Notes under the pieces: generated by a model | Told to the model about the DNA's origin: nothing | Seen by the model: the letters and a program-made list of their open reading frames with translations, nothing else | Database searches by the model: none | Position numbers and translations under genes: made by a program | Assembly (NCBI GenBank): GCA_041661545.1 | Contig: JBAZUH010000001.1 | Coordinates: forward strand, 275,877 to 339,876 | DNA from: Candidatus Staskawiczbacteria bacterium | Lineage (GTDB): Bacteria; Patescibacteriota; Minisyncoccia; Minisyncoccales; Staskawiczbacteraceae | Length of the DNA stretch: 64,000 nucleotides | Direction of reading: 5' to 3' | In this document: positions 4,545 through 64,000 of the stretch, piece by piece | How the letters are laid out: the number at the start of each line of letters is the position of its first letter | Numbering within the stretch: the stretch's first letter is position 1

Positions 4545-4565
4545 ATTATTTATTTTAACATATTG

Positions 4566-4637
4566 TGGGCGCGGAAGGAATCGGACCTTCGACCTCTGTC
4601 TTATCAGGACAGCGTTCTACCACTGAACTACGCGCCC
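4566..4637 (-). tRNA. tRNA-Ile (anticodon GAU)
   Basis: The reverse complement folds as a cloverleaf: GGGCGCG/TA/GTTC-AGTGGTA-GAAC/G/CTGTC-CTGATAA-GACAG/AGGTC/GAAGG-TCCGATT-CCTTC/CGCGCCC/A. No encoded CCA. The T-loop reads TCCGATT (C at position 55). Confidence 0.9.
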
Positions 4638-4685
4638 GTATTCTTAAGATTTTAACAAAAAAAACCATTTATTGCAAATATTAAT

Positions 4686-5095
4686 ATAAAAAAAGAGGGC
4701 TACACGAGTGTGTAGCCATGGCGAACGGGTTTAGGTGATGAGGAAGAGGTCTGAAAGACGGTAAGTGGATTGTAAATGATCTAAAAGATCCGGACGGCAG
4801 CAGGCAGAGCAGGGCGCGCTGAACAAATTTACGCGGTGAGTCCAGCGAACCCTTGGCGCTCAAGCCTGCCACCGTCCATTGGGAATAGTCAAAGCCATAT
4901 ACGGAGGACGATCCCCCCAGACAAGCCCCCGAGAGCCATTGACTTTTCCGAAATCGTTCAGGTCGGATGACGAATTATGAACAAAGCATACAGCCCTGAC
5001 AGAGGCGAAGCACCACCGAACGCAGTGCCACTTGTGCTCATATCTCGCTAACCGGCCTGAAAACTATTTACTATTCAAATAAACAATTTTCAGAA
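4686..5095 (-). ncRNA. rnpB: ~400-nt GC-rich structured RNA; best guess RNase P RNA (identity uncertain)
   Basis: About 50% GC in an AT-rich context. It contains a 13-bp helix (GACGGUGGCAGGC/GCCUGCUGCCGUC) enclosing nested helices, and UUCG-type hairpins. It ends in the intrinsic terminator GGCUACAC-ACUC-GUGUAGCC plus a U-run. Loose resemblance to RNase P: GAGCACAAGUGG...UAGAUCAUUUACAAUCCACUUAC with AAGUGG/CCACUU (P4-like) pairing, and AGGCUUGAGCG. Other conserved RNase P blocks were not recognised. Confidence 0.45.
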
Positions 5096-6584: not shown

Positions 6585-6884
6585 TTAAAGCACGGCTTTA
6601 ACTTTTATATACCCATCTTTTTTATCTGGAAAACCTGCCATCAACCTGTCTACTGTTCCCGCATTTCTTGGCAAAACCTCATCTGTCCTGGTCGCATTTA
6701 AATTTGCTATTCCATTATTCCGTGGAATATTGGAATAGTTAGCTTTGGGTTTTGGGGCGGATTTTAATAAATCAAAATAATCTAAAATTTCTGACAGGTC
6801 TTTCTGCATTTTTTCTGTTTCCTGTTCTGTTAATTCTAACCTAGCTAATTTAGCAATTTTTTCTACCTCTTTTTTAGATATCAT
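6585..6884 (-). CDS. gatC: Asp/Glu-tRNA amidotransferase subunit C
   Basis: MISKKEVEKIAKLARLELTEQE...ILDYFDLL pattern, 99 aa, upstream of gatA. Confidence 0.9.
   Translation of the reverse strand: MISKKEVEKIAKLARLELTEQETEKMQKDLSEILDYFDLLKSAPKPKANYSNIPRNNGIANLNATRTDEVLPRNAGTVDRLMAGFPDKKDGYIKVKAVL
6707..6742. repeat. family-2 palindromic element copy inside gatC coding sequence
   Basis: CTATTCCATTATTCCGTGGAATATTGGAATAGTTAG differs at 2 positions from the intergenic 39-mers at 10450 and 10789. It is read in frame as NYSNIPRNNGI. Confidence 0.8.
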
Positions 6885-6921
6885 TAGATTATAATAGCAA
6901 AAATTTATAATGATGCAAATC

Positions 6922-6950
6922 TTGACACCGCCAGCAATTATGTTAGTATT
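6922..6950 (+). promoter_or_regulatory. putative sigma70-type promoter of the Cys-rich mini-gene islet
   Basis: TTGACA at 6922-6927 followed 16 nt later by TAGTAT (or TATTAT at 19 nt). Confidence 0.4.
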
Positions 6951-6995
6951 ATTCTACTGAAGGTCTTGAACCTTTCCAACTCAACCCCGACTAAC

Positions 6996-7286
6996 ATGAA
7001 AGCATCTTTGTTAAAATTATTCCGCGCGCTACTCCAAGCGCTGCATGGTTTCTTTTGTGGACATACTTTTGCAATATCTTCAAATACATGCAACACTTGT
7101 GGCGTAGAATTATGCGGAAAAAGGCTCATTGAAGGTTTCTCTTTCGCCTGTAATTTACCAAAGGGCCATAAAGGGCAATGCGAAAATACTTTTGGGCAAG
7201 ATGCAATTTCAAGCTATCTCAGGGTTAATGGCGGAGGCCCTAAAATCAACGACAGTCGCGTCACCCATGAAACCACAAACTCATAG
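6996..7286 (+). CDS. small Cys/His-rich protein A (zinc-ribbon-like), GC-rich islet
   Basis: The ORF is open from 6966 (TTG), with the first ATG at 6996. Motif: CGHTFAISSNTCNTCGVELCGKRLIEGFSFACNLPKGHKGQCEN. The start codon is uncertain. Confidence 0.5.
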   Translation: MKASLLKLFRALLQALHGFFCGHTFAISSNTCNTCGVELCGKRLIEGFSFACNLPKGHKGQCENTFGQDAISSYLRVNGGGPKINDSRVTHETTNS

Positions 7287-7497
7287 ACACGCGCGACTTG
7301 GAAATCTTGCACATTGTGAAAGCTGTGGCGCTCCAATGTGCCTATCCCAACATCCATATCTGCTAGTGTGCTGCACGCGAGTAAGAGGACACTCAGGACA
7401 GTGCAACAACCCAAACTTTCTCAGCTTCACGAGCTGGGATCGACCAAGCGAGCAACACCCGAACCTCCCCACGCGTCTTGAACATCCAGCCTTTTAA
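7267..7497 (+). CDS. small Cys/His-rich protein B, paralog of protein A
   Basis: Motif HCESCGAPMCLSQHPYLLVCCTRVRGHSGQCNN repeats the C-x2-C-G-x3-C...C-x5-G-H-x-G-Q-C-x-N pattern of protein A, but in the +1 frame. The ATG at 7267 overlaps the end of A. The ORF is open from 7129. Confidence 0.5.
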   Translation: MKPQTHRHARLGNLAHCESCGAPMCLSQHPYLLVCCTRVRGHSGQCNNPNFLSFTSWDRPSEQHPNLPTRLEHPAF

Positions 7498-7586
7498 CTG
7501 ATTATTCTTGATTGTTTACCGCGCATGCATCGAATTTCTATTGGAAAACGATGCTTTTTTTATACTACAATACTCTTGATATAGCC

Positions 7587-7619
7587 AAAAAAATATCTCG
7601 CGAAAACGAGATATTTTTA
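7587..7619. terminator. bidirectional intrinsic terminator
   Basis: A-run, then ATATCTCG-CGAAAA-CGAGATAT, then T-run. Lies downstream of mreB (minus) and of the plus-strand islet. Confidence 0.6.
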
Positions 7620-7654
7620 TTAAAAATTATAAATTAGAAATTGAAAATTCGTGG

Positions 7655-8716
7655 CTAGTATGGGGCGTCATTTTCGTCATCTTTAGACATTACTTCAGAC
7701 AACGTTTCAATATTTTCTAAAGCAATTCCTGCACCCCTAACAACCGAAGTTAATGGGTCGTCAATTATCTTACAAGGCATTTTTGTTTCTTTAGAAATTA
7801 AAACATCAAGGCCCCTTAGCAATGAACCTCCTCCTGCTAAATAAATTCCATTTGTCATAACATCGGCCAATAATTCTGGCGGAGTTTCTTCTATGGTTAT
7901 TTTAATAGCTGAAATAATTTGTTTTACAGATCTATCTAGAGCTCTTTGAACATCATCATTAAAAATTACAACTTCTTCAGGAAGCCCTGTAATTAAATTT
8001 CTGCCTCGCATTGGCATTTCTTTTTTTTCTTTTAAGGGAATTGCTGAACCAATATTTATTTTAATTAATTCTGCGGTTTTTTCTCCAATTAAAAGCTTAT
8101 ATTCTTTTTGCGCAAATTGAACAATATCATCATTTAATTTATCTCCAGCAATTTTTAAACTTCTAGATGCCACAATTCCGCCCAAAGATATAACAGCAAC
8201 TTCGGTTGTTCCTCCTCCAATATCAACAATAAAATTTCCTCCTGCCTCTTGAACTGGTAATTTTGCTCCTATAGCTGAGGCTAATGGCTCTTCAATTAAA
8301 AATACTGTTCTGGCTCCTGCATTTTTTGCCGCGTCTCTTACTGCCCTTCTTTCAACTTCGGTTACACCACAAGGAATACCAATAATAACTCTTGGCATGC
8401 TCACCAAGCCAAACATTTTTTTACTAGAGCTAGTTGCTTTTTCAATAAAATATTTTAACATTTGTTCTGTCACTTCAAAATCAGATATAACTCCATTAAC
8501 TAATGGCCTTGTTGCAGAAATATAAGCTGGTGTTCGGCCAACCATCTTTTTGGCCTCTTCTCCAATAGCTAAAATTTGACCTGTTTTATTATTTACAGCC
8601 ACTACAGAGGGCTCATTAATAATGATGCCCCTGTCTTTTACATAAACCAAAGAATTGGCTGTACCCAAGTCAATTGCCATATCAATCGATAAAAATGAAA
8701 ATAATCTTTTAAGCAT
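7655..8716 (-). CDS. mreB: rod shape-determining protein MreB (paralog 1)
   Basis: MAIDLGTANSLVYV, DIGGGTTEVAVISLGG and LAGGGSLLRGL actin-fold motifs. Confidence 0.9.
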   Translation of the reverse strand: MLKRLFSFLSIDMAIDLGTANSLVYVKDRGIIINEPSVVAVNNKTGQILAIGEEAKKMVGRTPAYISATRPLVNGVISDFEVTEQMLKYFIEKATSSSKKMFGLVSMPRVIIGIPCGVTEVERRAVRDAAKNAGARTVFLIEEPLASAIGAKLPVQEAGGNFIVDIGGGTTEVAVISLGGIVASRSLKIAGDKLNDDIVQFAQKEYKLLIGEKTAELIKINIGSAIPLKEKKEMPMRGRNLITGLPEEVVIFNDDVQRALDRSVKQIISAIKITIEETPPELLADVMTNGIYLAGGGSLLRGLDVLISKETKMPCKIIDDPLTSVVRGAGIALENIETLSEVMSKDDENDAPY

Positions 8717-9986
8717 TTTTAATTATTTTTATTAACTGTTTTATTTTTATTAGTTTTACTGCGCTCTTGTTTCTTTCTTTCAACTCAACTGAATTTTTAA
8801 CTATGGTTTTCTCTGAAACTACTATTCTTAAAGGAATACCAATCAAATCTGCTTCTGCAAATTTTTCTCCAGCTGATTTATCTTCCCTGTTGTCATATAA
8901 TACCTGAATGTCATTTTTATTTCCCGCTACACGGGATCCCGCTTCGCGGGACAAGTCACTGTAAATTTTCGCTGCGGTCTTTTTGACTTTATCAGAATCT
9001 CCCAAAGAAATCAAATGCACATTAAATGGGGCTACTTCTTTTGGCCAAATAATTCCTCTTTCATCATGACTTGCCTCAACAATTGCACCCATAACCCTTG
9101 ATATGCCCATTCCATAACACCCCATGATTACTGGCTTTTCTTGCCCATCTTTATCTTTGAATTTTAAATCAAATGGCAAAGAATATTTTGTTCCTAGTTT
9201 AAAAATATTTCCCACTTCAACCGCTTTCTTCTCTTCAAAGCTATCTGAGCTACAAGCAGGACACACGGGAGTTTCTGCTTTTATTTCTTTATTAATTGCT
9301 GTTTTACATTTGTTACAAATATAAATTGTGTCTTCGCCAGCATCTGTTGTCATCTGAAATTCGTGAGAATATCTAGAAAAAGTTCCTCCCGAAGCAAAAG
9401 TTAAATAAGTTTTGTTTCTAATTCCTAATTCTTTAAAAATATTAAAATAAACTTTTACAATTTTGTCATAATATTTATCTAAATCTTCTTGAGTTGCATG
9501 AAAAGAATACATATCTTTCATTAAAAATTCTCTTGTTCTTAATATTCCAGATTTTGCTCTTAGTTCATCTCTAAATTTTGTTTGAATTTGATAAACGGAA
9601 AATGGCAGGTCTCTATAAGAAAAAATAAATTTTTTAGCTAATGGGCTTATAACCTCTTCATGCGTTGGCCCCAAGGCATATTCTTTGTCTCCCGATCCAT
9701 TTATTTGGAACAAAACATCCATGCTAGTCCATCTTCCGGTTTTTACCCAATTTTCTTTGGGTTGCAAAACTGGCATTAAAACTTCTTGCCCGCCAGCTTC
9801 ATTCATATTTTTTCTAATTATATTTTCAATATTTCTTACAACAGAAAAACCTAATGGTAAAAAACTATAAACTCCGGCCATTAACTGATCTACAAATCCC
9901 CCGCGCGTTAACAAATCGTGCGAAATTGCTTCTGTGTCTTGTGATTTGTCCTTAGATATTTTACAAAATAAATTAGATTGTAACAT
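8709..9986 (-). CDS. proS: prolyl-tRNA synthetase (short form, no INS editing domain)
   Basis: YQIQTKFRDELRAKSGILRTREFLMKDMYSF class II motif and a C-terminal anticodon-binding domain. Only 425 aa. Confidence 0.85.
   Translation of the reverse strand: MLQSNLFCKISKDKSQDTEAISHDLLTRGGFVDQLMAGVYSFLPLGFSVVRNIENIIRKNMNEAGGQEVLMPVLQPKENWVKTGRWTSMDVLFQINGSGDKEYALGPTHEEVISPLAKKFIFSYRDLPFSVYQIQTKFRDELRAKSGILRTREFLMKDMYSFHATQEDLDKYYDKIVKVYFNIFKELGIRNKTYLTFASGGTFSRYSHEFQMTTDAGEDTIYICNKCKTAINKEIKAETPVCPACSSDSFEEKKAVEVGNIFKLGTKYSLPFDLKFKDKDGQEKPVIMGCYGMGISRVMGAIVEASHDERGIIWPKEVAPFNVHLISLGDSDKVKKTAAKIYSDLSREAGSRVAGNKNDIQVLYDNREDKSAGEKFAEADLIGIPLRIVVSEKTIVKNSVELKERNKSAVKLIKIKQLIKIIKNA
8922..8951. repeat. 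two tandem family-4 hairpins inside proS coding sequence
   Basis: TCCCGCTACACGGGA followed directly by TCCCGCTTCGCGGGA (30 nt, 10 codons), read as SREAGSRVAG. Same YCCCGC-N3-GCGGGR design as the intergenic hairpins at 26784, 29020 and 39351. Confidence 0.7.
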
Positions 9987-9996
9987 ATTGAATTTT

Positions 9997-10437
9997 TTAA
10001 TTTTTATAACCTGCCTCGCTATATAATATTTTATTTTTTATACATTCAATAGAATTTTTTACAAAAGGGATTACATTCTCTGGCAAATTATCTAAGTCAA
10101 ACCATGACAAATCATCACATTTTTGGGGCTCTTTGTTTATAATTTCACCCACCCATTTATCGGTAGTAAAAAAAATATCTATTCTTTCTGAATCAATATA
10201 TTTATTCACAATATGAACAACTGTTAAATTTTCTGGTTTAATCAATATTCCCGCTTCTTCTTGGGCTTCCCTAACCATGCATTGAGTAAATGACTCACCC
10301 TGGTCAACATGACCTGCAATCATACTATATTTACCATCTTCATAACCAGTATTATATCTTCTTAGCAACAAGACTTTATTATCTTTTGTTAAAAATAAAT
10401 ATGACGCTGGAGTAATTTTATGTCTTTCCTTTTCCAT
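9997..10437 (-). CDS. NUDIX hydrolase
   Basis: Nudix box GHVDQGESFTQCMVREAQEEAGI. Confidence 0.85.
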   Translation of the reverse strand: MEKERHKITPASYLFLTKDNKVLLLRRYNTGYEDGKYSMIAGHVDQGESFTQCMVREAQEEAGILIKPENLTVVHIVNKYIDSERIDIFFTTDKWVGEIINKEPQKCDDLSWFDLDNLPENVIPFVKNSIECIKNKILYSEAGYKN

Positions 10438-10449
10438 AAATTTACCACT

Positions 10450-10488
10450 CGCCTATTCCGTTATTCCGCGGAATATTGGAATAGTTAG
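10450..10488. repeat. family-2 palindromic 39-mer
   Basis: CGCCTATTCCGTTATTCCGCGGAATATTGGAATAGTTAG, identical to the copy at 10789. Its core ATTCCGCGGAAT is a perfect palindrome flanked by CTATTCC/GGAATAG. Confidence 0.9.
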
Positions 10489-10757
10489 ATTAGTGTTTTT
10501 AAAAATTTCAAAACTGCTACGCCCTTACTTGTTATTTTGTGATGGACAATCAACCCTTCGGATCTTTTTATAACAAAACCTGCTATTGCCATTTTCTTTA
10601 TGTGATCAGATGCTGTTCTAAAATTTATATTTAAAATTTTAGATATATCTACCAGCGACATTTCGGGATTTTTACTTAATAATTCCAAAATTTCAATCCG
10701 CCTGTGATTAGCAAACCCTTTTACAATTCTTTCTACTTGATAATAACTTTTACTCAT
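10485..10757 (-). CDS. ArsR-family winged-helix transcriptional regulator
   Basis: HRRIEILELLSKNPEMSLVDISKILNINFRTASDHIKKM helix-turn-helix pattern, 90 aa. Confidence 0.7.
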   Translation of the reverse strand: MSKSYYQVERIVKGFANHRRIEILELLSKNPEMSLVDISKILNINFRTASDHIKKMAIAGFVIKRSEGLIVHHKITSKGVAVLKFLKTLI

Positions 10758-10788
10758 ATTACTTATTATATCAAATTTTTCTTCTGAC

Positions 10789-10827
10789 GCCTATTCCGTT
10801 ATTCCGCGGAATATTGGAATAGTTAGG
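10789..10827. repeat. family-2 palindromic 39-mer (possible operator upstream of the ArsR-like gene)
   Basis: Exact 39-nt repeat of 10450..10488, located about 30 nt upstream of the regulator's start codon. Confidence 0.9.
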
Positions 10828-10839
10828 TTGCTGGATAAG

Positions 10840-11982
10840 TTACTGGAAGGCTGATTTTAAAAAATTATAAAGTAATGGCACGTCAAATCGTATAGTTATA
10901 AAAAGAGACAAAGCAATTAATATTATAAAAAATGTTACTGTAATTCTTTGCTCTAATTTTACTGAAACTGGTCTTCCTTTTATTTTTTCTAAAAATAAAA
11001 ATATCAATTTGCCTCCATCTAATGCTGGAATTGGAAATAAATTAAATATAGCAATAAGCACAGAAATCATTCCTATAAAATACAAGAAAAATCCTGCTCC
11101 ATAACTTGCCGCATTAGCTAAAAATACAGTAATTCCAATTGGTCCAGCTAATGAAGCGCCTGCTGGCAAGCCCTTATTTGAAAATAATCTAGCCAAAGTG
11201 TCGTATAAGCCAACTAGCGACTTTATAGTTACATCCCAAGTATAAATTACTCCTTGAACTGGAGCCATATACCAAGCAGTTTTTTTGATTAAAGTTGCCA
11301 TTCTTTCTAAACCAACTCCAACTGCCCCTTCTCCGGCTGGCGGATTAACTCTTGGTGTTATTTTTGCATCAAATATTTGAGGCTGGCCGTTAACAGTTCT
11401 TTCAATATTTAAAATTAACTCTTTTCCCTTATTTTCACCTGTTATTCTTTGAAAATCAGATATTTTATTAATATCTGTGTTAATATCGTTAACTTTTATG
11501 CTTTTTACTGTGTCGGCAATTTTTAATCCTGCCAAACCAGCTGGCGAAGTTGGCGATACAGAAACTATTTTTAATTTAGGGTTTGTTAATCCTTGCACTT
11601 CTTGATCGCCCACAGGCAAGTCAGCCCCTATGGCAAAAACAACAGAAAAAATAATTATAGCGGCAATCCAAAAAGCAGCTACTCCGCCAATTACAATTAA
11701 AACCCTTTTCCATATTTTTAAGTTTTGAAAACTTCTTAAATCATCTACTCCACCTTCTTCTCCAAAAATTCTAACAAATGCTCCAAGTGGTATCCAATTT
11801 ATAGAATAAATTGTTTCTCCAATTTTTTTGCCCCAAATTCGTGGCGGATATCCAATGCCAAATTCATCAACTCTAATCCCAAATTTTTTAGCAATAATAA
11901 AATGCCCATATTCATGAATAATCATTAAGGCTATTAAACATAGAAAGGCTATTACTAAAGTTAAAATTGTTGTAAAGACCAT
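10840..11982 (-). CDS. rseP: RIP metalloprotease RseP (site-2 protease, M50 with PDZ)
   Basis: HEYGHFIIAKKFG (HExxH), a central PDZ-like segment, and a C-terminal NLFPIPALDGG motif. Confidence 0.9.
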   Translation of the reverse strand: MVFTTILTLVIAFLCLIALMIIHEYGHFIIAKKFGIRVDEFGIGYPPRIWGKKIGETIYSINWIPLGAFVRIFGEEGGVDDLRSFQNLKIWKRVLIVIGGVAAFWIAAIIIFSVVFAIGADLPVGDQEVQGLTNPKLKIVSVSPTSPAGLAGLKIADTVKSIKVNDINTDINKISDFQRITGENKGKELILNIERTVNGQPQIFDAKITPRVNPPAGEGAVGVGLERMATLIKKTAWYMAPVQGVIYTWDVTIKSLVGLYDTLARLFSNKGLPAGASLAGPIGITVFLANAASYGAGFFLYFIGMISVLIAIFNLFPIPALDGGKLIFLFLEKIKGRPVSVKLEQRITVTFFIILIALSLFITIRFDVPLLYNFLKSAFQ

Positions 11983-12976: not shown

Positions 12977-12982
12977 AAATTG

Positions 12983-13058
12983 AAGCGAGGCAATGAGATT
13001 TTTCGAAGCTTGTTGTGCGAAGCGAATAAGTGCGAAGAAAAATCTTGTTGCCGAGCGA
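12983..13058. repeat. family-1 palindromic element
   Basis: AAGCGAGGCAATGAGATTTTTCGAAGC...GCGAAGAAAAATCTTGTTGCCGAGCGA. Near-identical to the copy at 23106. Fills the holB-frr spacer. Confidence 0.9.
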
Positions 13059-13832: not shown

Positions 13833-13987
13833 AGCGAGGCAATGAATTCGTAGCGAACCCTGCAGGCAATTTTGCAAGGTTCCGCGAAGCGGAAAAATTG
13901 CCGAAGCCTGAGTGAGTTGCGCGCTGGCGCAATGAACGCTAGCGAAGAATCATTGCCGAGCGAAAAATTTATTGCCGAGCGAAAAAA
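13833..13987. repeat. family-1 composite or nested palindromic element
   Basis: AGCGAGGCAATGAATTCG...GGCAATTTTGC..GCGGAAAAATTGCC...GAATCATTGCCGAGCGAAAAATTTATTGCCGAGCGAAAAAA. Fills the mreB2-holB spacer. Confidence 0.85.
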
Positions 13988-23098: not shown

Positions 23099-23105
23099 TT
23101 TATTT

Positions 23106-23181
23106 AAGTGAGGCAATAAGATTTTTCGAAGCTTGTTGTGCGAAGCGAATAAGTGCGTAGAAAAATTTTATTGCCGAACGA
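23106..23181. repeat. family-1 palindromic element
   Basis: AAGTGAGGCAATAAGATTTTTCGAAGCTTGTTGTGCGAAGCGAATAAGTGCGTAGAAAAATTTTATTGCCGAACGA. Near-identical to the 12983 copy. Lies between rpmJ and rpsM. Confidence 0.9.
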
Positions 23182-30336: not shown

Positions 30337-30471
30337 AGTGAGGCAAAAGTAATTTTAATAAGCGAGACAATAAACTTTTTGTAGTTTCTGGTCCACTTGC
30401 CCGAAGAGGCAAAGGGGGCTACCAGCTACGGAAAAAAGTTTATTGTCGAGCGAAAAAATTTATTACCAAGC
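30337..30471. repeat. family-1 nested palindromic element
   Basis: AGTGAGGCAAAAGTAATTTTAATAAGCGAGACAATAAACTTTTTGTAG...CTACGGAAAAAAGTTTATTGTCGAGCGAAAAAATTTATTACCAAGC. Fills the rplO-secY spacer. Confidence 0.85.
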
Positions 30472-47354: not shown

Positions 47355-47993
47355 TTATAATGTCAACATGCGTCCGGTGATTAACTGAAAAATAATACTT
47401 GTTACGCTAGACCACACGCCTCCACCAAAAACAATTAACAAAATTAATATAATCACTCCATACTGTCTTAAAAAGTTTTTAATATAATCTAATTTTGCTG
47501 GCAATAAACTGAATAAAATCCAAGAACCATCTAATGGTGGCACAGGAATAAGATTAAAAATTGCTAACCATATATTAATAGCAACAACATAGATTAAAGC
47601 AATCATTATTCCTGGATTTCCTGAAATTATTGCATCGGGTATAAATCTTAATATTAATCCAAAAAATACTGCAATGGCTAAATTTGATAATGGCCCTGCA
47701 ATAGAAACCTTAATCTCTCCATATTTTTTATCTCTAAAATTATAAGGATTTACTGGAACAGGTTTTGCCCAGCCAAATAAAAATGGGCTTCCTGCTACAA
47801 ATAATAACAACGGCAAAATAATTGATCCAAACGGGTCTAAATGCTTTAAAGGATTTAGGGTTAACCTTCCTTCATATTTTGCAGTTGGATCACCCAAAGA
47901 ATAAGCCACACTTCCGTGAGCTAGTTCATGAATAATTACAGAAAAAAGCAATATAACCAAAGAAAAAATTGTAATAATTATTGTTGGATCCAT
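47355..47993 (-). CDS. site-2 protease family (M50) membrane metalloprotease
   Basis: HELAHG in the first TM, RLTLNPLKHLDPFGS, and NL.PVPPLDG. Confidence 0.85.
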   Translation of the reverse strand: MDPTIIITIFSLVILLFSVIIHELAHGSVAYSLGDPTAKYEGRLTLNPLKHLDPFGSIILPLLLFVAGSPFLFGWAKPVPVNPYNFRDKKYGEIKVSIAGPLSNLAIAVFFGLILRFIPDAIISGNPGIMIALIYVVAINIWLAIFNLIPVPPLDGSWILFSLLPAKLDYIKNFLRQYGVIILILLIVFGGGVWSSVTSIIFQLITGRMLTL

Positions 47994-48176
47994 AAGTTTA
48001 CGTAGCGTAGCGATATTTCATTTATATTACACTATATTTTTGATACTTGCAAAATACTATATATAATGGTAGAGTAAATTATTAAATTTATGAATTCAGA
48101 ATCGTGTATCTGGAATCTAGAATAGAATGTAAGTCTATTCAAGATACAAAATACCAAATTCAATATTCAATCAAAT

Positions 48177-49716: not shown

Positions 49717-49839
49717 AAGCGAGGGAATAAATTTAAAGCGAGCCAAATAAATTTTTAGAGGAGGGGCAATCGCCTTCAGGACATTCCCCCGACGAGCAAA
49801 AATTTGATTTGGCGAGCGGATAAATTTATTTCTCGAGCG
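49717..49839. repeat. family-1 nested palindromic element
   Basis: AAGCGAGGGAATAAATTTAAAGCGAGCCAAATAAATTTTT...AAAAATTTGATTTGGCGAGCGGATAAATTTATTTCTCGAGCG. The right arm supplies the last codons and stop of the 49826..50689 gene. Confidence 0.85.
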
Positions 49840-52979: not shown

Positions 52980-53394
52980 TTTTTAAAAAATTAATAACAT
53001 CTACGTCTCCTATTAAACAGCTACCTGCTTGCCCCGAATTTATTGAAGGGTTGTACAAAAATGGTATTGAAATGCCGCTACTTGCATCTATTTTGCATTC
53101 TGTTGCCACTTGACTCAATAATCCTGCATTTGCTATAAGCTCGGCGCTGCTTTTGCCATTAAAAGGAATTTCTAATCTTGTTAATTTTATTTTTTGGTCA
53201 ATATTATTTTCTTGTATAAAAGCTTCTACATTTTTACAGTGAGGACAATCTTCCCCAAAGAACAAAAGTATTCCTTCTGGTCTTTGCACGGGTTCAACTG
53301 AAGGAATTTTAACAAAAAAACCAGATTGAAACCCCCAAAACAAAAATCCGGCAAAAATTATTATTAAAACTGTGTATATTATTGCTTTATCCAT
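52951..53394 (-). CDS. membrane-anchored thioredoxin-fold protein
   Basis: N-terminal TM followed by LLFFGEDCPHCKNVEAFI (CxxC). Confidence 0.7.
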   Translation of the reverse strand: MDKAIIYTVLIIIFAGFLFWGFQSGFFVKIPSVEPVQRPEGILLFFGEDCPHCKNVEAFIQENNIDQKIKLTRLEIPFNGKSSAELIANAGLLSQVATECKIDASSGISIPFLYNPSINSGQAGSCLIGDVDVINFLKNETNIAQQE

Positions 53395-53468
53395 AAGTTT
53401 ACGTAGCGTAGCGATATATTATTTATGTTTTAATTTTACTACTTTACTAAAAATTTGCAATCCCAAAA

Positions 53469-55896: not shown

Positions 55897-56041
55897 AAGC
55901 GAGGCAACAAACTTGTAACGAGGCAGTTAATTTTCAGCGTATTTCAGGACACGAAGTGCCTGACGAAGCCATTTAGACGCGAAGCGTATCAATGGCGGTA
56001 GCAGAAAATTGACTGCCAAGAGAAAAAAACTATTGCTGAGC
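55897..56041. repeat. family-1 nested palindromic element
   Basis: AAGCGAGGCAACAAACTTGTAACGAGGCAGTTAATTTTCAGCG...GCAGAAAATTGACTGCCAAGAGAAAAAAACTATTGCTGAGC. Confidence 0.8.
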
Positions 56042-57475: not shown

Positions 57476-57558
57476 AAGCGAGCCAATAAATTTTTTCGAG
57501 GCGAATGGGCACCGTCCGCAGACGGGTTGAGACGAGAAAAAATTTGATTGGCAAGCGA
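57476..57558. repeat. family-1 palindromic element
   Basis: AAGCGAGCCAATAAATTTTTTCGAGGCG...GACGAGAAAAAATTTGATTGGCAAGCGA. Lies between csoR and the HMA-permease gene. Confidence 0.85.
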
Positions 57559-57560
57559 TG

Positions 57561-57836
57561 TTATTTGTTAAAAAGCTTAGTTACTTTTAATATTTCGTCT
57601 GTCATTTCTTTTTTTCTTTTCTCATTTTTTGATGTCATTGCGTTTTTAAAACAAGAGTTTAAATGACTCTCCATCAACATCTCGTGAGCAGAACGCAAAA
57701 GACCAATAACAGCCAAATTTTGCTGCATAATATCTACACAATATTCTCCGCCCTCAGTCATTTCTATAATTTTAGATATAGAACCCTGAGCTTTTTTAAA
57801 GCTGATTAAAGCTTTTTGCCTATTTTCACTTATCAT
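57561..57836 (-). CDS. csoR: CsoR/RcnR family metal-sensing repressor
   Basis: 91 aa with ...GGEYCVDIMQQNLAVIGLLRSAHEMLMESHLNSC (C-H-C ligand pattern). Confidence 0.85.
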   Translation of the reverse strand: MISENRQKALISFKKAQGSISKIIEMTEGGEYCVDIMQQNLAVIGLLRSAHEMLMESHLNSCFKNAMTSKNEKRKKEMTDEILKVTKLFNK

Positions 57837-57921: not shown

Positions 57922-59022
57922 CTACTTGATAATACCCCCGCCTAAAACTTGGCTACCCTTGTAAAATACTGCGGATTGGCCTTGTGCCAAGGCTTTGCCT
58001 AATTTTTTAAAAACTAATTTTCCATCCTTATACAGAATGGCTTTTTGTAAAGGGGCTCTATATCTAGTTCTAACATCCATTAATACCGGAAAAATCTCCG
58101 GTTTATTTATCCAACTAATATTTATTATTTTAGCTTCTTTTACAGCCAAATCTTTCTCTGTGCCCACATATATAATATTTTTCTTTATATCTTTTTTAAC
58201 AACAAAATACGGCCCGTGCCCATTTTTTATATCTAATCCATGTCTTTGCCCAATTGTATAATAATAGACACCGTCATGCTTCCCTATTTTTTTACCATCA
58301 ATAGAAATTATTTCTCCTATTTTTGGTTTTATATACATTTTTAAGAAATTTTTCATATCAAACTGCCCAACAAAGCAAACGCCTTGACTATCTTTTTTTT
58401 CAGCATTTTCTAATTTAAATTTTTTAGCTAATTTTCTAACTTCTGGTTTTTCTAAATTACCTACTGGAAATAAAATTTTATTAAGTTGCTTTTGTTTTAA
58501 TGTATATAAAAAATATGTTTGATCTTTATTAGCATCAACCGCTTTTAACAAGCGAGGCAATGAACTTTTTCGAGAAGAGGGTGCCCCGTAGAGAGGCTCT
58601 CCTCGCAGAAAAAGTTTATTGCCGAGCGAAGTTTGCGCATAATGACCAGTTGCAACAAAATCAAAACCTTGTTTCATTGCTTTATCAAAAAAATAACCAA
58701 ATTTAATAATTTTATTACACATTACATCGGGGTTTGGAGTAATCCCCTTTTTATAAGAATCAATCATATACTTACCAACTTCTGTTTCATATTCTTTAGA
58801 AAAATCCCAAGTTAAAAAGGGAATTCCTAGCTTAGCGCAAGCTCTCATGGCATCTTGTCTATCTGCTTTCCAAATACATTCTTTTTCCAGAATTTCTGGA
58901 GACCATTGACGCATATAAATTCCAACTACATTAAAACCAGCTTTTTTTAACAAAGCTGCTGAAACGCTAGAATCTACTCCGCCAGACATAGCACATGCAA
59001 CTCTAACCATAATATTTTTCAA
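57922..59022 (-). CDS. mnmA: tRNA 2-thiouridine(34) synthase MnmA, carrying an in-frame repeat insertion
   Basis: CAMSGGVDSSV PP-loop, ATGHYAQ, NKDQTYFLY. The segment SLGNKLFLRGEPLYGAPSSRKSSLPRL is encoded by a family-1 element. Confidence 0.9.
   Translation of the reverse strand: MKNIMVRVACAMSGGVDSSVSAALLKKAGFNVVGIYMRQWSPEILEKECIWKADRQDAMRACAKLGIPFLTWDFSKEYETEVGKYMIDSYKKGITPNPDVMCNKIIKFGYFFDKAMKQGFDFVATGHYAQTSLGNKLFLRGEPLYGAPSSRKSSLPRLLKAVDANKDQTYFLYTLKQKQLNKILFPVGNLEKPEVRKLAKKFKLENAEKKDSQGVCFVGQFDMKNFLKMYIKPKIGEIISIDGKKIGKHDGVYYYTIGQRHGLDIKNGHGPYFVVKKDIKKNIIYVGTEKDLAVKEAKIINISWINKPEIFPVLMDVRTRYRAPLQKAILYKDGKLVFKKLGKALAQGQSAVFYKGSQVLGGGIIK
58550..58630. repeat. family-1 palindromic element inserted in frame in mnmA
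   Basis: AAGCGAGGCAATGAACTTTTTCGAGAAGAGGGTGCCCCGTAGAGAGGCTCTCCTCGCAGAAAAAGTTTATTGCCGAGCGAA. 81 nt, 27 codons, no stop in the mnmA frame. Confidence 0.85.
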
Positions 59023-62020: not shown

Positions 62021-64000
62021 TTAACCAACTATACGTCTACGTCTTAAAATAAATACCGTAAATCCAGAAGAAAGCGCAACAACCGATGTAACAATAATCC
62101 ACGTTATTGCTGTTTTCTTATTTTTTTCAGAGCTATCTGCTGAATTTTGCTCTTGTTTTTCAGGTACAATTATGTTAGATGCTTCTGTTGGAGTGGCTGA
62201 TACTTCATTTGATGCTGATGTTGATGCAGTTGGTAAATTTGCCTGTGGCACAGTTGTTTCTGGTGTTGTATCTAAAATTACTACTGGTTCAATTTCTGTA
62301 TCTATTGGCGTTGTTGGAACAACAGGGGGCACTCGCACGTAACCACCACCAAGAGGAGCTGGCGTATCATCAGCCGAAGTGGCCGAGGTAGAGCTAATTG
62401 GTCCTTGCCCAACAGAATTTACTGCTTTTACTCTAAAATCATAGCTTAAATTATTAGTAAGGCCAGTAACTATTGCACTAGTTACAGTAGAAATTGGGTC
62501 AGCAAATATGCTCCAGCTAGAATCTGAACTTAATTTATATTCAATAACATAGTCTGTAATTGCACTACCTCCGTCTGAAGTAGGGGCGCTCCAAAATAAA
62601 CCCACCTGCATATTTCCAGCTGATGCTGAAAGTGAATTTATAATACCTGGCACAGTCATTGGTATTACAGCATCTGATGGTGGCGATGAAGACAACCCTG
62701 TGCCAATAATATTTGTGGCCGTCATTGTAAATGTATAAGATGTGCCATTTGTTAAACCAGTTATAATAATTGGCGTAGTAAGACCTGTTTCTGTTAAACC
62801 TCCGGGGTTTGAAGTAACAGTATAATTTGTAATTTCGCTTCCACCGTTTGAAGCAGGGGCAGTAAAAGAAACCGTTGCTTGCTCATTTCCAGCTACAGCA
62901 GAAACCCCTGTTGGCGGATCTGGAAAAGTTGCAACAGCTGTGAAAGATGAAAAAGCAGAAGATGAAGTTGAGCCATACAAAACTCTTATATGAAAATAAT
63001 AATCTCCGGGAGTTGATACAGTTGAAATAGCTGTAAAATCATAATCATCACCCGAATCAATAAGTTTTGCATTTGAAGCACTAAAAACATCATCGCCTCC
63101 GCCACATAAATTGTCTACTGCATCAGTAACGCACAAGGTGTATTGATATTCATATTCAATTACACCTTCGTTTGTAATTCTTATATCTGTGCTAATGCTT
63201 GTATTAGTTAAATCTGAAAAACCCATAATTAACACCTGAGCTGGCTCACCAGGAGTAGCACTAACCACGCTACTTGCTCCACTTGTACCAATAATATTTT
63301 TAGCACTTACTCTAAAATCATAAGACGTGCCGTTAGATAATCCAGTTACTGTAGCAAATTTATCAATGCTTACTCCATCGTCAAAAGTAGCCCAAGTTCC
63401 GCCAGTTGTTAGTTGATATTCAATTACATAATCTGTAATTGCGCTACCTCCGGTTGAAGCAGGATCTGACCATGTTAATTTAATACTGCTACTTTTTACT
63501 TCTGTGGCAACATTAAGTGGCTCGGTTGGTTCGGTTGGTAAAGTTATTTCCGCAGAAGCATCTGAAGCCAAGCCATCTCCAACATCGTTTGTTGCTACCA
63601 CAGTAAAAGTATAAGTTGCGCCATTTGTTAAACCTGTAACAGTGTGAGAAAGGTCTGTTGAGCTAGCATTTATATCTGTACCACCATTATTTGAAGAAAC
63701 TGTATATCCGGTAATTGCACTACCACCATTAGACAATGGCGCAGTAAAAGTTATTACTGCTTGCCCATTACCTGCCTCTGCGGTTACCCCTGTTGCTTTT
63801 CCTGGAACTCCCGCCGGTGTTACAGAAGAAGAGGCATCTGAATCTGGCCCATCACCAGCAACATTAGTAGCTTTTACAGTAAATGTATATTCTGTTCCAT
63901 TTGTAAGCCCACTAATAATAATTGGCGACGTGCTACCAGCTTGCGTAATTGCTTGCGGATTGGAAGTAACAGTATAATTTGTAATTTCGCTTCCGCCATT
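62021..64000 (-). CDS. large surface protein with tandem fibronectin type III-like repeats and C-terminal TM anchor (5' end beyond window)
   Basis: Repeated ...APxSNGGSxITxYxV....GG...........TGLTNGTSYTFxVxAxNxxG... units. The frame stays open upstream of the track start (a TTG at 63736) to the window edge. C-terminal TM plus RRRRIVG. Confidence 0.8.
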   Translation of the reverse strand, partial: NGGSEITNYTVTSNPQAITQAGSTSPIIISGLTNGTEYTFTVKATNVAGDGPDSDASSSVTPAGVPGKATGVTAEAGNGQAVITFTAPLSNGGSAITGYTVSSNNGGTDINASSTDLSHTVTGLTNGATYTFTVVATNDVGDGLASDASAEITLPTEPTEPLNVATEVKSSSIKLTWSDPASTGGSAITDYVIEYQLTTGGTWATFDDGVSIDKFATVTGLSNGTSYDFRVSAKNIIGTSGASSVVSATPGEPAQVLIMGFSDLTNTSISTDIRITNEGVIEYEYQYTLCVTDAVDNLCGGGDDVFSASNAKLIDSGDDYDFTAISTVSTPGDYYFHIRVLYGSTSSSAFSSFTAVATFPDPPTGVSAVAGNEQATVSFTAPASNGGSEITNYTVTSNPGGLTETGLTTPIIITGLTNGTSYTFTMTATNIIGTGLSSSPPSDAVIPMTVPGIINSLSASAGNMQVGLFWSAPTSDGGSAITDYVIEYKLSSDSSWSIFADPISTVTSAIVTGLTNNLSYDFRVKAVNSVGQGPISSTSATSADDTPAPLGGGYVRVPPVVPTTPIDTEIEPVVILDTTPETTVPQANLPTASTSASNEVSATPTEASNIIVPEKQEQNSADSSEKNKKTAITWIIVTSVVALSSGFTVFILRRRRIVG

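Follow-up and report, generated by a model that had tools for sequence, protein, structure and literature searches.

The stretch of DNA analysed here (the window) comprises 64,000 nucleotides (nt) of a Candidatus Staskawiczbacteria bacterium (contig JBAZUH010000001.1, positions 275,877 to 339,876). At the locus of interest it carries, all on the minus strand and in this order, a gene for an RseP/M50 protease (10840-11982), a dyad-symmetric repeat termed O-up (10788..10826), a gene for a small regulator of 90 amino acids (aa) predicted to be a winged helix of the ArsR/SmtB fold (10485..10757), a second copy of the repeat, O-down (10450..10488), a NUDIX hydrolase gene identified by Pfam (9997..10437), proS, mreB, a 770-bp gap, gatC (6585..6884; 99 aa, Pfam GatC) and gatA. 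A third copy of the repeat, O-gatC (6707..6742), lies in frame within gatC, in the variable central linker of the encoded protein, and in the same orientation as the others. The 39-nt sequence CGCCTATTCCGTTATTCCGCGGAATATTGGAATAGTTAG has exactly two plus-strand occurrences in the window, 10450-10488 and 10788-10826, and found no match in 100 dinucleotide shuffles. A first-pass annotation of the window had reported identical 39-nt copies at 10450 and 10789; the identity and the first position hold, while the second copy begins at 10788. The coordinates also agree with its statement that the copies lie on both sides of the ArsR-like gene, one of them preceding the NUDIX gene.

The repeat had been called a palindrome. 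A dyad with CTATTCC/GGAATAG arms is indeed present, but its symmetry is not perfect: the symmetric part is a 32-nt imperfect dyad (10453-10484 in O-down, 10791-10822 in O-up) in which 14 of 16 positions pair. Read on the minus strand, the core is CTATTCC-AA-TATTCC-GC-GGAATA-AC-GGAATAG, a series of four TATTCC/GGAATA hexamers with 8-bp spacing (6-2-6-2-6-2-6). Written as a scan query, the motif is TATTCYNNNWTTCYNNRGAAWNNNRGAATA. Neither a search allowing up to nine mismatches to the 32-nt core nor a degenerate four-half-site pattern revealed copies beyond these three in the window, and the three are confined to 4.1 kb, the other 60 kb being without any. The degenerate pattern, which matches all three window copies, gave five hits in a scan of IMG/VR, with no regulator homologue nearby. 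Rfam showed no match at the palindromes. A weak match to a loose four-half-site pattern, TATTTTAATATTTTTAAAGAATTAGGAATT, occurs in proS at 9420-9449 with two mismatches, encodes YFNIFKELGI and is kept in the proS gene of a relative (L052, 12651-12680); it is probably coincidental in A+T-rich coding sequence.

The two flanking sites are tightly fitted to the regulator gene. O-up lies 13 nt past the RseP stop codon, and 20 nt separate its promoter-proximal edge, the final G of GGAATAG, from the -10 hexamer that serves the regulator gene further downstream. This hexamer belongs to an extended -10 element, TGATATAAT (10765..10773, minus strand, read from the sequence), which stands 7 nt before the ATG; the block AAATTTGRTATAAT is kept in the related loci L046, L050 and L051. 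At the other end of the gene, the TTAG tail of O-down supplies the TAA stop codon of the regulator (10485-10487, minus strand), and 12 nt separate the repeat from the NUDIX ATG downstream. Upstream of gatC, a promoter-like site adjoins the ATG (6891..6919, minus strand; TTTGCA, a 17-nt spacer and TATTAT, with TG before it). This site is a consensus match only, and relative to it O-gatC would lie ~150-180 nt into the transcript. In both gatC (6884-6896) and the regulator gene (10755-10773), only 6-7 nt lie between a -10-like hexamer and the ATG, and a Shine-Dalgarno sequence is absent, which suggests that their transcripts are leaderless.

We then considered the protein. The regulator matches the Pfam HTH_5 (ArsR) model with 30.4 bits against a cut-off of 22, and HTH_24 and MarR also exceed their gathering scores; the NCBIfam ArsR/SmtB model NF033788 gives 45.5, below its cut-off of 55. 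Sequence matches in the PDB are ArsR-family proteins (Rv2642-like, CadC, HlyU, PagR and ArsR). An AlphaFold2 model built on 48 homologues, with a predicted local distance difference test score (pLDDT) of 93, has the order α1-α2-α3-αR-β1-β2-α5, with helices at residues 5-15, 18-29, 35-42, 46-58 and 77-89 and strands at 62-67 and 70-75. The top Foldseek matches, at template modelling (TM) scores of 0.7-0.85, are YgaV, CadC, Mb0332, ArsR, HlyU, PagR, CzrA and SmtB. From this model we confidently predict an ArsR/SmtB winged-helix fold, including the α5 dimerisation helix. The regulator contains no cysteine, and its EMSLVDI segment aligns with ELCVCDI of CadC, so that SLV occupies the CVC position; the sequence thus reads as that of a protein that is not a classical metal sensor. 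Neither an α3N CXC motif nor α5 metal ligands were found in it. A metal or metalloid ligand site marks only the metal-sensing subgroup, not the ArsR/SmtB fold family. The search yielded 255 homologues of the regulator, mostly of ~90 aa, and those with a named source bear the label Staskawiczbacteria or 'bacterium'.

Loci of relatives (L0nn) were retrieved via homologues of GatC and of the regulator. The regulators of three further lineages (L046, L050/51 and L052-54) are 78-86% identical to that of the window. In these lineages identity at third positions of conserved codons is as low as 54-62%, with synonymous sites near saturation, and the spacer beside the core has diverged. The 32-nt core, however, is 100% identical in eight intergenic copies from the four lineages (window, L046, L050/51 and L052-54). 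Zero changes in 32 nt would therefore be improbable under drift (P < 1e-3 per lineage). The identical core is also found upstream of the regulator gene in L046 and L050, at the same constant distance of 20 nt from TATAAT as in the window. In L052, the upstream core precedes an operon of three genes, DUF1402, a 155-aa gene and, last, the regulator. At the 3' end, the core begins at the regulator TAA stop whatever follows, be it NUDIX (window, L050), proS (L046) or a 586-aa Cys-rich protein (L052). The distance between the two flanking sites differs by lineage (338, 322, 312, 308 and 288 bp) and helical phasing is not conserved, so we make no specific claim of looping between them.

Gene order at the locus varies, with RseP-regulator-NUDIX-proS in the window and L050 versus RseP-NUDIX-regulator-proS in L046; the NUDIX proteins across these orders are orthologous (72% identity), and L043 and L045 have neither the regulator nor NUDIX at this position. 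In L050 (929-1400) and L051, two independent assemblies, the NUDIX orthologue has an in-frame TAA at codon 16. It is called there as 109 aa from an internal Met and may be a pseudogene or have a shifted start. At the regulator gene end of the closest relative, L046 (7270-7325; also in L047, L048 and L049), the outer half-sites are kept and the centre is a G+C-rich perfect palindrome, CTGCCTGCCGGCAGGCAGG. The hairpin at this gene end reaches -33 kcal/mol, and the gene downstream is the essential proS, not NUDIX.

More distant homologues of the regulator, with 70% (L059), 66% (L055), 60% (L061) and 59% (L057) identity, have the same four-half-site dyad twice, once on the promoter side and once at the gene 3' end. 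In L055, L059 and L061, 14-15 nt separate the upstream copy from a -10-like hexamer that follows it; in L057 the copy stands ~10 nt before the ATG. Outer half-sites (TATTCY/GGAATA) are constant across the family. Inner half-sites differ by lineage (TATTCC-GC-GGAATA, WATTCT-TA-AGAATR, AGTTCT-CA-AGAAGT and TATTTT-GC-AAAAWK), and these variants follow the lineage and divergence of the regulator. The two copies within one genome are more alike than copies between genomes, and in L061 they share even their flanks. In all four distant loci the 3' copy coincides with the last ten codons of the regulator plus the stop, S-I-L-x-F-x-x-x-L-E-stop, a C-terminus that predominates among the 120 homologues listed. 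The window clade has a degenerate coding version at its C-terminus (VLKFLKTLI-stop), followed by a fresh copy, and this arrangement suggests an ancestral tandem duplication of the site.

We aligned the dyads as 10 distinct site variants. Symmetric cells pair in 84% of cases, compared with 39-49% in slid controls, and eight of the 16 pairs have changed on both sides. The covariation score is 0.31 versus 0.18 in shuffles, none of 500 shuffles scoring as high. The ATTC/GAAT and TT/AA positions show no variation across the 10 variants, and this invariance implies base-specific recognition of the site.

Two further observations concern related genes. The 66% identical homologue (L055, 10318-13917) lies on a contig that does not look like one of the Candidate Phyla Radiation (CPR), with TolB, TonB and OmpA nearby, directly upstream of nadA, aspartate dehydrogenase, nicotinamidase (pncA) and nadC. 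Together with the recurrent NUDIX neighbours, these nad genes hint at a link between the regulator family and NAD metabolism. In L043 (16180-16640) and L044 (10530-11010) there is a paralogous ArsR-family gene of 88 aa, 37% identical, bracketed by a different palindrome, GGACAATTC-N4-GAATTGTCC, with one copy on each side in inverted orientation. The layout of a putative operator on both sides of the gene thus recurs with a palindrome of its own.

The copy inside gatC corresponds to 36 nt of the 39-mer (CTATTCC...GGAATAGTTAG), from which two plus-strand substitutions, G>A and C>T, set it apart; it is read in frame as N-Y-S-N-I-P-R-N-N-G-I-A. Alignment and reading frame thus uphold the first-pass description of a copy with two substitutions translated as NYSNIPRNNGI. 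Both changes are synonymous (CCG>CCA and AAC>AAT) and fall on centre and spacer positions that are also variable among the putative operators. In the closest relative (L042, GatC 80% identical), all 36 nt match the intergenic consensus. The window copy differs at 2 of 36 nt, compared with 22% divergence in the remaining gatC (P = 0.007). The Pfam GatC model has 66 positions and covers 78 residues here, a surplus of 12 aa; the surplus in the central linker is ~7 aa relative to Aquifex GatC and ~6 aa relative to most Staskawiczbacteria orthologues. An orthologue comparison, which the first-pass annotation had proposed as a check, showed that the peptide is not universal. Only seven of 191 retrieved GatC sequences carry the motif, the carriers are palindromic at the DNA level, and they are not mutual nearest relatives outside the linker. 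A GatC search seeded with the L043-type protein yielded no new motif-bearing orthologues.

At the same gatC position, L043/44 have CATTCCAACATTCTCAAGAATGTGGGAATG (HSNILKNVGM), and a closely similar sequence occurs in L045. Set against the window type, three pairs have undergone compensatory change, and in two of these pairs both sides are altered non-synonymously (Y/I to H/M); from these changes we read that palindromy, not the peptide, is what gatC preserves. The inner TTCT-CA-AGAA of L043/44 and L045 resembles the putative operator class of L059 and L061. Other GatC sequences, among them P0006, P0018 and P0301, have the look of versions in decay or with a part deleted, and we therefore favour an old insertion in gatC with repeated loss over repeated gain.

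Taken together, we consider it probable that the 90-aa ArsR/SmtB-fold regulator has the palindrome as its cognate operator, with a promoter site, a gene-end site and a site in gatC. The first-pass annotation had proposed an operator, and the comparative evidence (invariance of the site, dyads across the family and the ArsR/SmtB fold) strongly supports it. Binding, the sign of regulation, stoichiometry and effector are all matters that we infer. The 30-32 bp dyad of four half-sites would suit two dimers. O-up would span about -33 to -64 of a probably leaderless promoter and may mediate autoregulation, most likely repression through occlusion of the -35 region. O-down fills the short gap before NUDIX, where bound protein could gate read-through into, or expression of, the downstream gene; NUDIX is a likely regulated target. 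O-gatC might act on the gatCA operon, as a roadblock or as an anchor for looping, or it might be an extra site that is tolerated; we consider these two options about equal, and the site has about an even chance of being functional.

Several observations weigh against this operator model. The copy counts cover a 64-kb window of a 738-kb genome together with ~40 kb from the loci of relatives. Every copy points the same way with respect to transcription and bears a TAAC head on one side only, neither of which a symmetric dimer requires. The site is not a canonical 12-2-12 repeat, and 8-bp phasing of half-sites is unusual for a dimer of a winged helix-turn-helix (wHTH) protein. Since most of O-up falls upstream of the -35 region, repression is not certain and activation may occur instead. 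O-up is absent from L051 although its protein is the same as that of L050, and O-down is disrupted in L046, its centre swapped for a G+C-rich insert; by this comparison neither flanking site appears to be indispensable. In L043 and L045 the gatC palindrome is present with no regulator orthologue within 10 kb. Conversely, gatC is without the site in L050-type, L052 and L059 genomes, and the L050-type and L052 genomes have an identical operator candidate and regulator despite their site-free gatC.

A rival reading is that the element works as a hairpin in transcribed RNA (or in single-stranded DNA), where it would stabilise 3' ends, serve as a processing site or attenuator, or modulate translation. 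In its favour, all copies share their orientation relative to the coding strand, the copies fold into two stems at -12 to -15 kcal/mol (z -2.8 to -5.3), the position of O-down coincides precisely with the end of the regulator open reading frame (ORF) just before the next start codon, the GC-rich palindrome that replaces the O-down centre in L046 yields a hairpin of -33 kcal/mol, and the dyad covariation fits a hairpin equally well as a dimer site. We nevertheless consider a hairpin function unlikely. The positions that would be left unpaired (the AA/AC internal loop and the CGCG loop) vary no more between species than the stems do, the half-site letters are invariant across the whole family, and the inner half-sites change along with the regulator lineage. 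Moreover, O-up lies upstream of the -10 element and hence outside the regulator's own transcript. An intrinsic terminator was considered and rejected, since the stems are A+U-rich, no U-run follows them on the transcribed strand and the terminator scan did not list the sites. Chances are slimmer for a small mobile palindromic repeat, similar to repetitive extragenic palindromes (REP), to miniature inverted-repeat transposable elements (MITE) or to Rickettsia palindromic elements (RPE), that landed by the regulator and in gatC. The two identical 39-nt copies and the in-frame copy in a coding gene are compatible with such an element, as is its variable presence between strains (L050 has O-up, L051 does not). 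Gene order around the regulator varies among relatives, with breakpoints beside the palindromes, the TAAC head on one side resembles the motifs by which hairpin-borne elements are targeted or guided, and the genome hosts another hairpin repeat family. That family, an 80-nt repeat, is truly dispersed, its ~8 copies, full or partial, being spread across 45 kb of the window; the palindrome has three copies in 64 kb, all within 4.1 kb. All ten intact window-type copies, in four lineages (64-kb window and ~40 kb of relatives' loci), lie within ~4 kb of a regulator gene. They are 100% conserved across species, whereas selfish repeats drift, their sequence variants track regulator divergence, and no transposase or REP-associated tyrosine transposase (RAYT)-like ORF was found in 4.5-13.5 kb. 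The first-pass annotation had suggested that the sequence is also a mobile palindromic element, a view that the sequence covered does not support: the copies are linked to the regulator and invariant, and the dispersed hairpin repeat of the window behaves otherwise; many copies unlinked to the regulator, which it would have taken to mark a pure repeat, were not seen, no unlinked copy occurring in the regions covered. For the 64-kb window and the relatives' loci we accordingly set aside a REP/BIME (bacterial interspersed mosaic element) or MITE-like dispersed repeat, given the copy number, the clustering and the ~4-kb proximity of the relatives' copies to the regulator, and also an RPE-like insert, which the in-frame position in gatC resembles and which the length (32-36 nt versus 100-150 bp) and copy number (three in the window versus tens per genome) do not.

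Direct 39-nt repeats bracketing a single small gene could also be sites of site-specific recombination (attC-, dif- or cassette-like), with the regulator as an excisable cassette between them. The unit of palindrome, regulator and palindrome is found on either side of NUDIX in different lineages, and GTTAGAT/GTTAGGT at one end fit the attC R' consensus GTTRRRY. We hold this to be very improbable. No complementary R'' is present at the other end, no integrase or recombinase occurs among the neighbouring ORFs, a third direct copy in gatC would permit deletion of the essential proS, mreB and gatC, and in most of the family the 3' copy lies in regulator coding sequence. An attC site proper was rejected, with GTTAG at one end only, 32-39 nt compared with 57-141 nt for known attC sites, and no neighbouring integrase. 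There is a still fainter chance that the regulator is a chromosome-organising or centromere-binding wHTH protein like AspA of pNOB8 and that the palindromes are its loading sites. Weak matches to AspA exist (sequence E = 0.006, fold rank 49), and the palindromes are clustered and exactly conserved, with one inside an ORF, as with parS. Far stronger matches, however, are to the ArsR, CadC, CzrA and HlyU regulators, no ParA-like partner is adjacent, and the sites are at a promoter and a gene junction.

Within the operator model, a more far-reaching version would have the last codons of the regulator and the gatC linker each double as a functional operator; as a joint claim we regard this as tentative and rather doubtful. 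Its first part is that, throughout this family of regulators, the last ten codons plus the stop, in helix α5 (S-I-L-K-F-L-R-x-L-E-stop), would be the regulator's own operator, with the 3' copy apparently kept matched to the promoter copy by gene conversion. According to its second part, some Staskawiczbacteria would carry another functional operator, in frame within the essential gatC gene, and the gatC dyad would be held by compensatory non-synonymous changes (YSNIPRNNGI versus HSNILKNVGM). If both parts were true, Gln/Asn-tRNA amidation would be tied to a NUDIX/NAD-linked regulator in a minimal CPR genome. One DNA segment would then serve as both protein code and regulatory dyad, at the regulator C-terminus and in the GatC linker, with the compensatory evolution visible.

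To our knowledge, almost nothing is known about transcription control in CPR bacteria (Patescibacteria), which cannot grow alone. The candidate described here is a concrete regulator-operator pair, a 90-aa ArsR-fold protein and a 32-bp site conserved base for base across species. Its predicted targets are the regulator itself, NUDIX and possibly gatCA, and, with no need to culture the organism, it could be studied in vitro or in E. coli.

Other features of the window were recorded as well. A dispersed hairpin repeat of ~80 nt has full copies at 12979-13058 and 23102-23181 (91% identical) and partial copies near 13944-13987, 30360-30458, 49736-49759, 56004-56028, 57476-57562 and 58550-58634. 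It has long inverted arms, AAGCGAGGCAATGAGATTTTTCG ... CGAAGAAAAATCTTGTTGCCGAGCGA, fills intergenic gaps such as that between frr and holB, folds on the plus strand at -34 kcal/mol (z = -6.2) and has no match in Rfam; the actual REP/MITE-like element of this genome is apparently this one. Two distant places, 47965-48028 and 53366-53429, share a 64-nt direct repeat (83% identical), and a run of ~290-bp tandem coding repeats occupies the window end (62687-64000). The 770-bp stretch between mreB and gatC (6885-7654) is G+C-rich, with up to 50% G+C compared with 34% for the genome, and Cys-rich motifs (C-x2-C ... GH-x-GQC-x-N) recur in its plus-strand ORFs, which occupy two frames. Neither an Rfam nor a tmRNA match was found in it. 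Only its last 38 nt are conserved in the closest relative, where an unrelated gap of 685 bp takes its place; L059 has a 945-bp gap at the same place between mreB and gatC. A second G+C-rich island (4640-5000, 55% G+C) adjoins tRNA-Ile(GAT) at 4565-4637, and ARAGORN reported the tRNA-Ile only.

The predicted pair can be compared with several known systems. Wholly bare of a Nudix domain, the 90-aa ArsR fold differs from NrtR, the Nudix-related transcriptional regulator of NAD metabolism, which fuses a Nudix-like effector domain to a wHTH domain. The two are alike in that a wHTH regulator is associated with NUDIX or NAD genes: NUDIX is adjacent to the regulator in the window, L046 and L050 and lies three genes downstream in L057, while the downstream genes differ in L052, L059 and L061. 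Operators placed within coding regions, even at the 3' end of the gene for the regulator itself, have precedents in the lac operators O3 (3' end of lacI) and O2 (inside lacZ) and in the PurR operator inside purB, intragenic sites that act by looping or as roadblocks. Unlike these, the 3' site here, for most family members, coincides with the stop and the ten codons before it and is a near-copy of the promoter site, and gatC is of unrelated function. RPE and REP likewise include palindromes that can lie in frame in genes and add a peptide segment. In contrast to the element of the window, which has few copies, goes with a single regulator and does not vary between species, they are high-copy, dispersed, longer (~100-150 bp for RPE) and drift between species. 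Closer in kind are the non-metal ArsR-type regulators HlyU, PagR, YgaV, NolR and BigR/SqrR, which are about the same size and among the best sequence or fold matches, several of them being without metal sites; identity to them is only 20-30%, however, and BigR and SqrR sense via cysteines, which the window regulator lacks. With the ArsR/SmtB repressors (SmtB, CzrA, CadC and ArsR) it shares the predicted fold (TM ~0.8) and the layout of a small gene with an inverted repeat next to or overlapping its own promoter. It differs from them in having no cysteines and no α3N or α5 ligands, and in the second site at the gene's own 3' end. Operators of the ArsR/SmtB family have been reported upstream of or inside the genes under their control (PMC8790569), in the format of an imperfect 12-2-12 inverted repeat (PMC8790569, PMC6555750), and the site here is instead a 32-bp four-hexamer dyad that adjoins the promoter, 20 nt from the -10 element. 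Inverted-repeat operators of ArsR-family proteins, including sites within genes, are thus already documented (PMC8790569, PMC6555750). What is unusual here is the 6-2-6-2-6-2-6 architecture, C-terminal codons that would double as an operator, and the apparent compensatory evolution of a dyad in the GatC linker.

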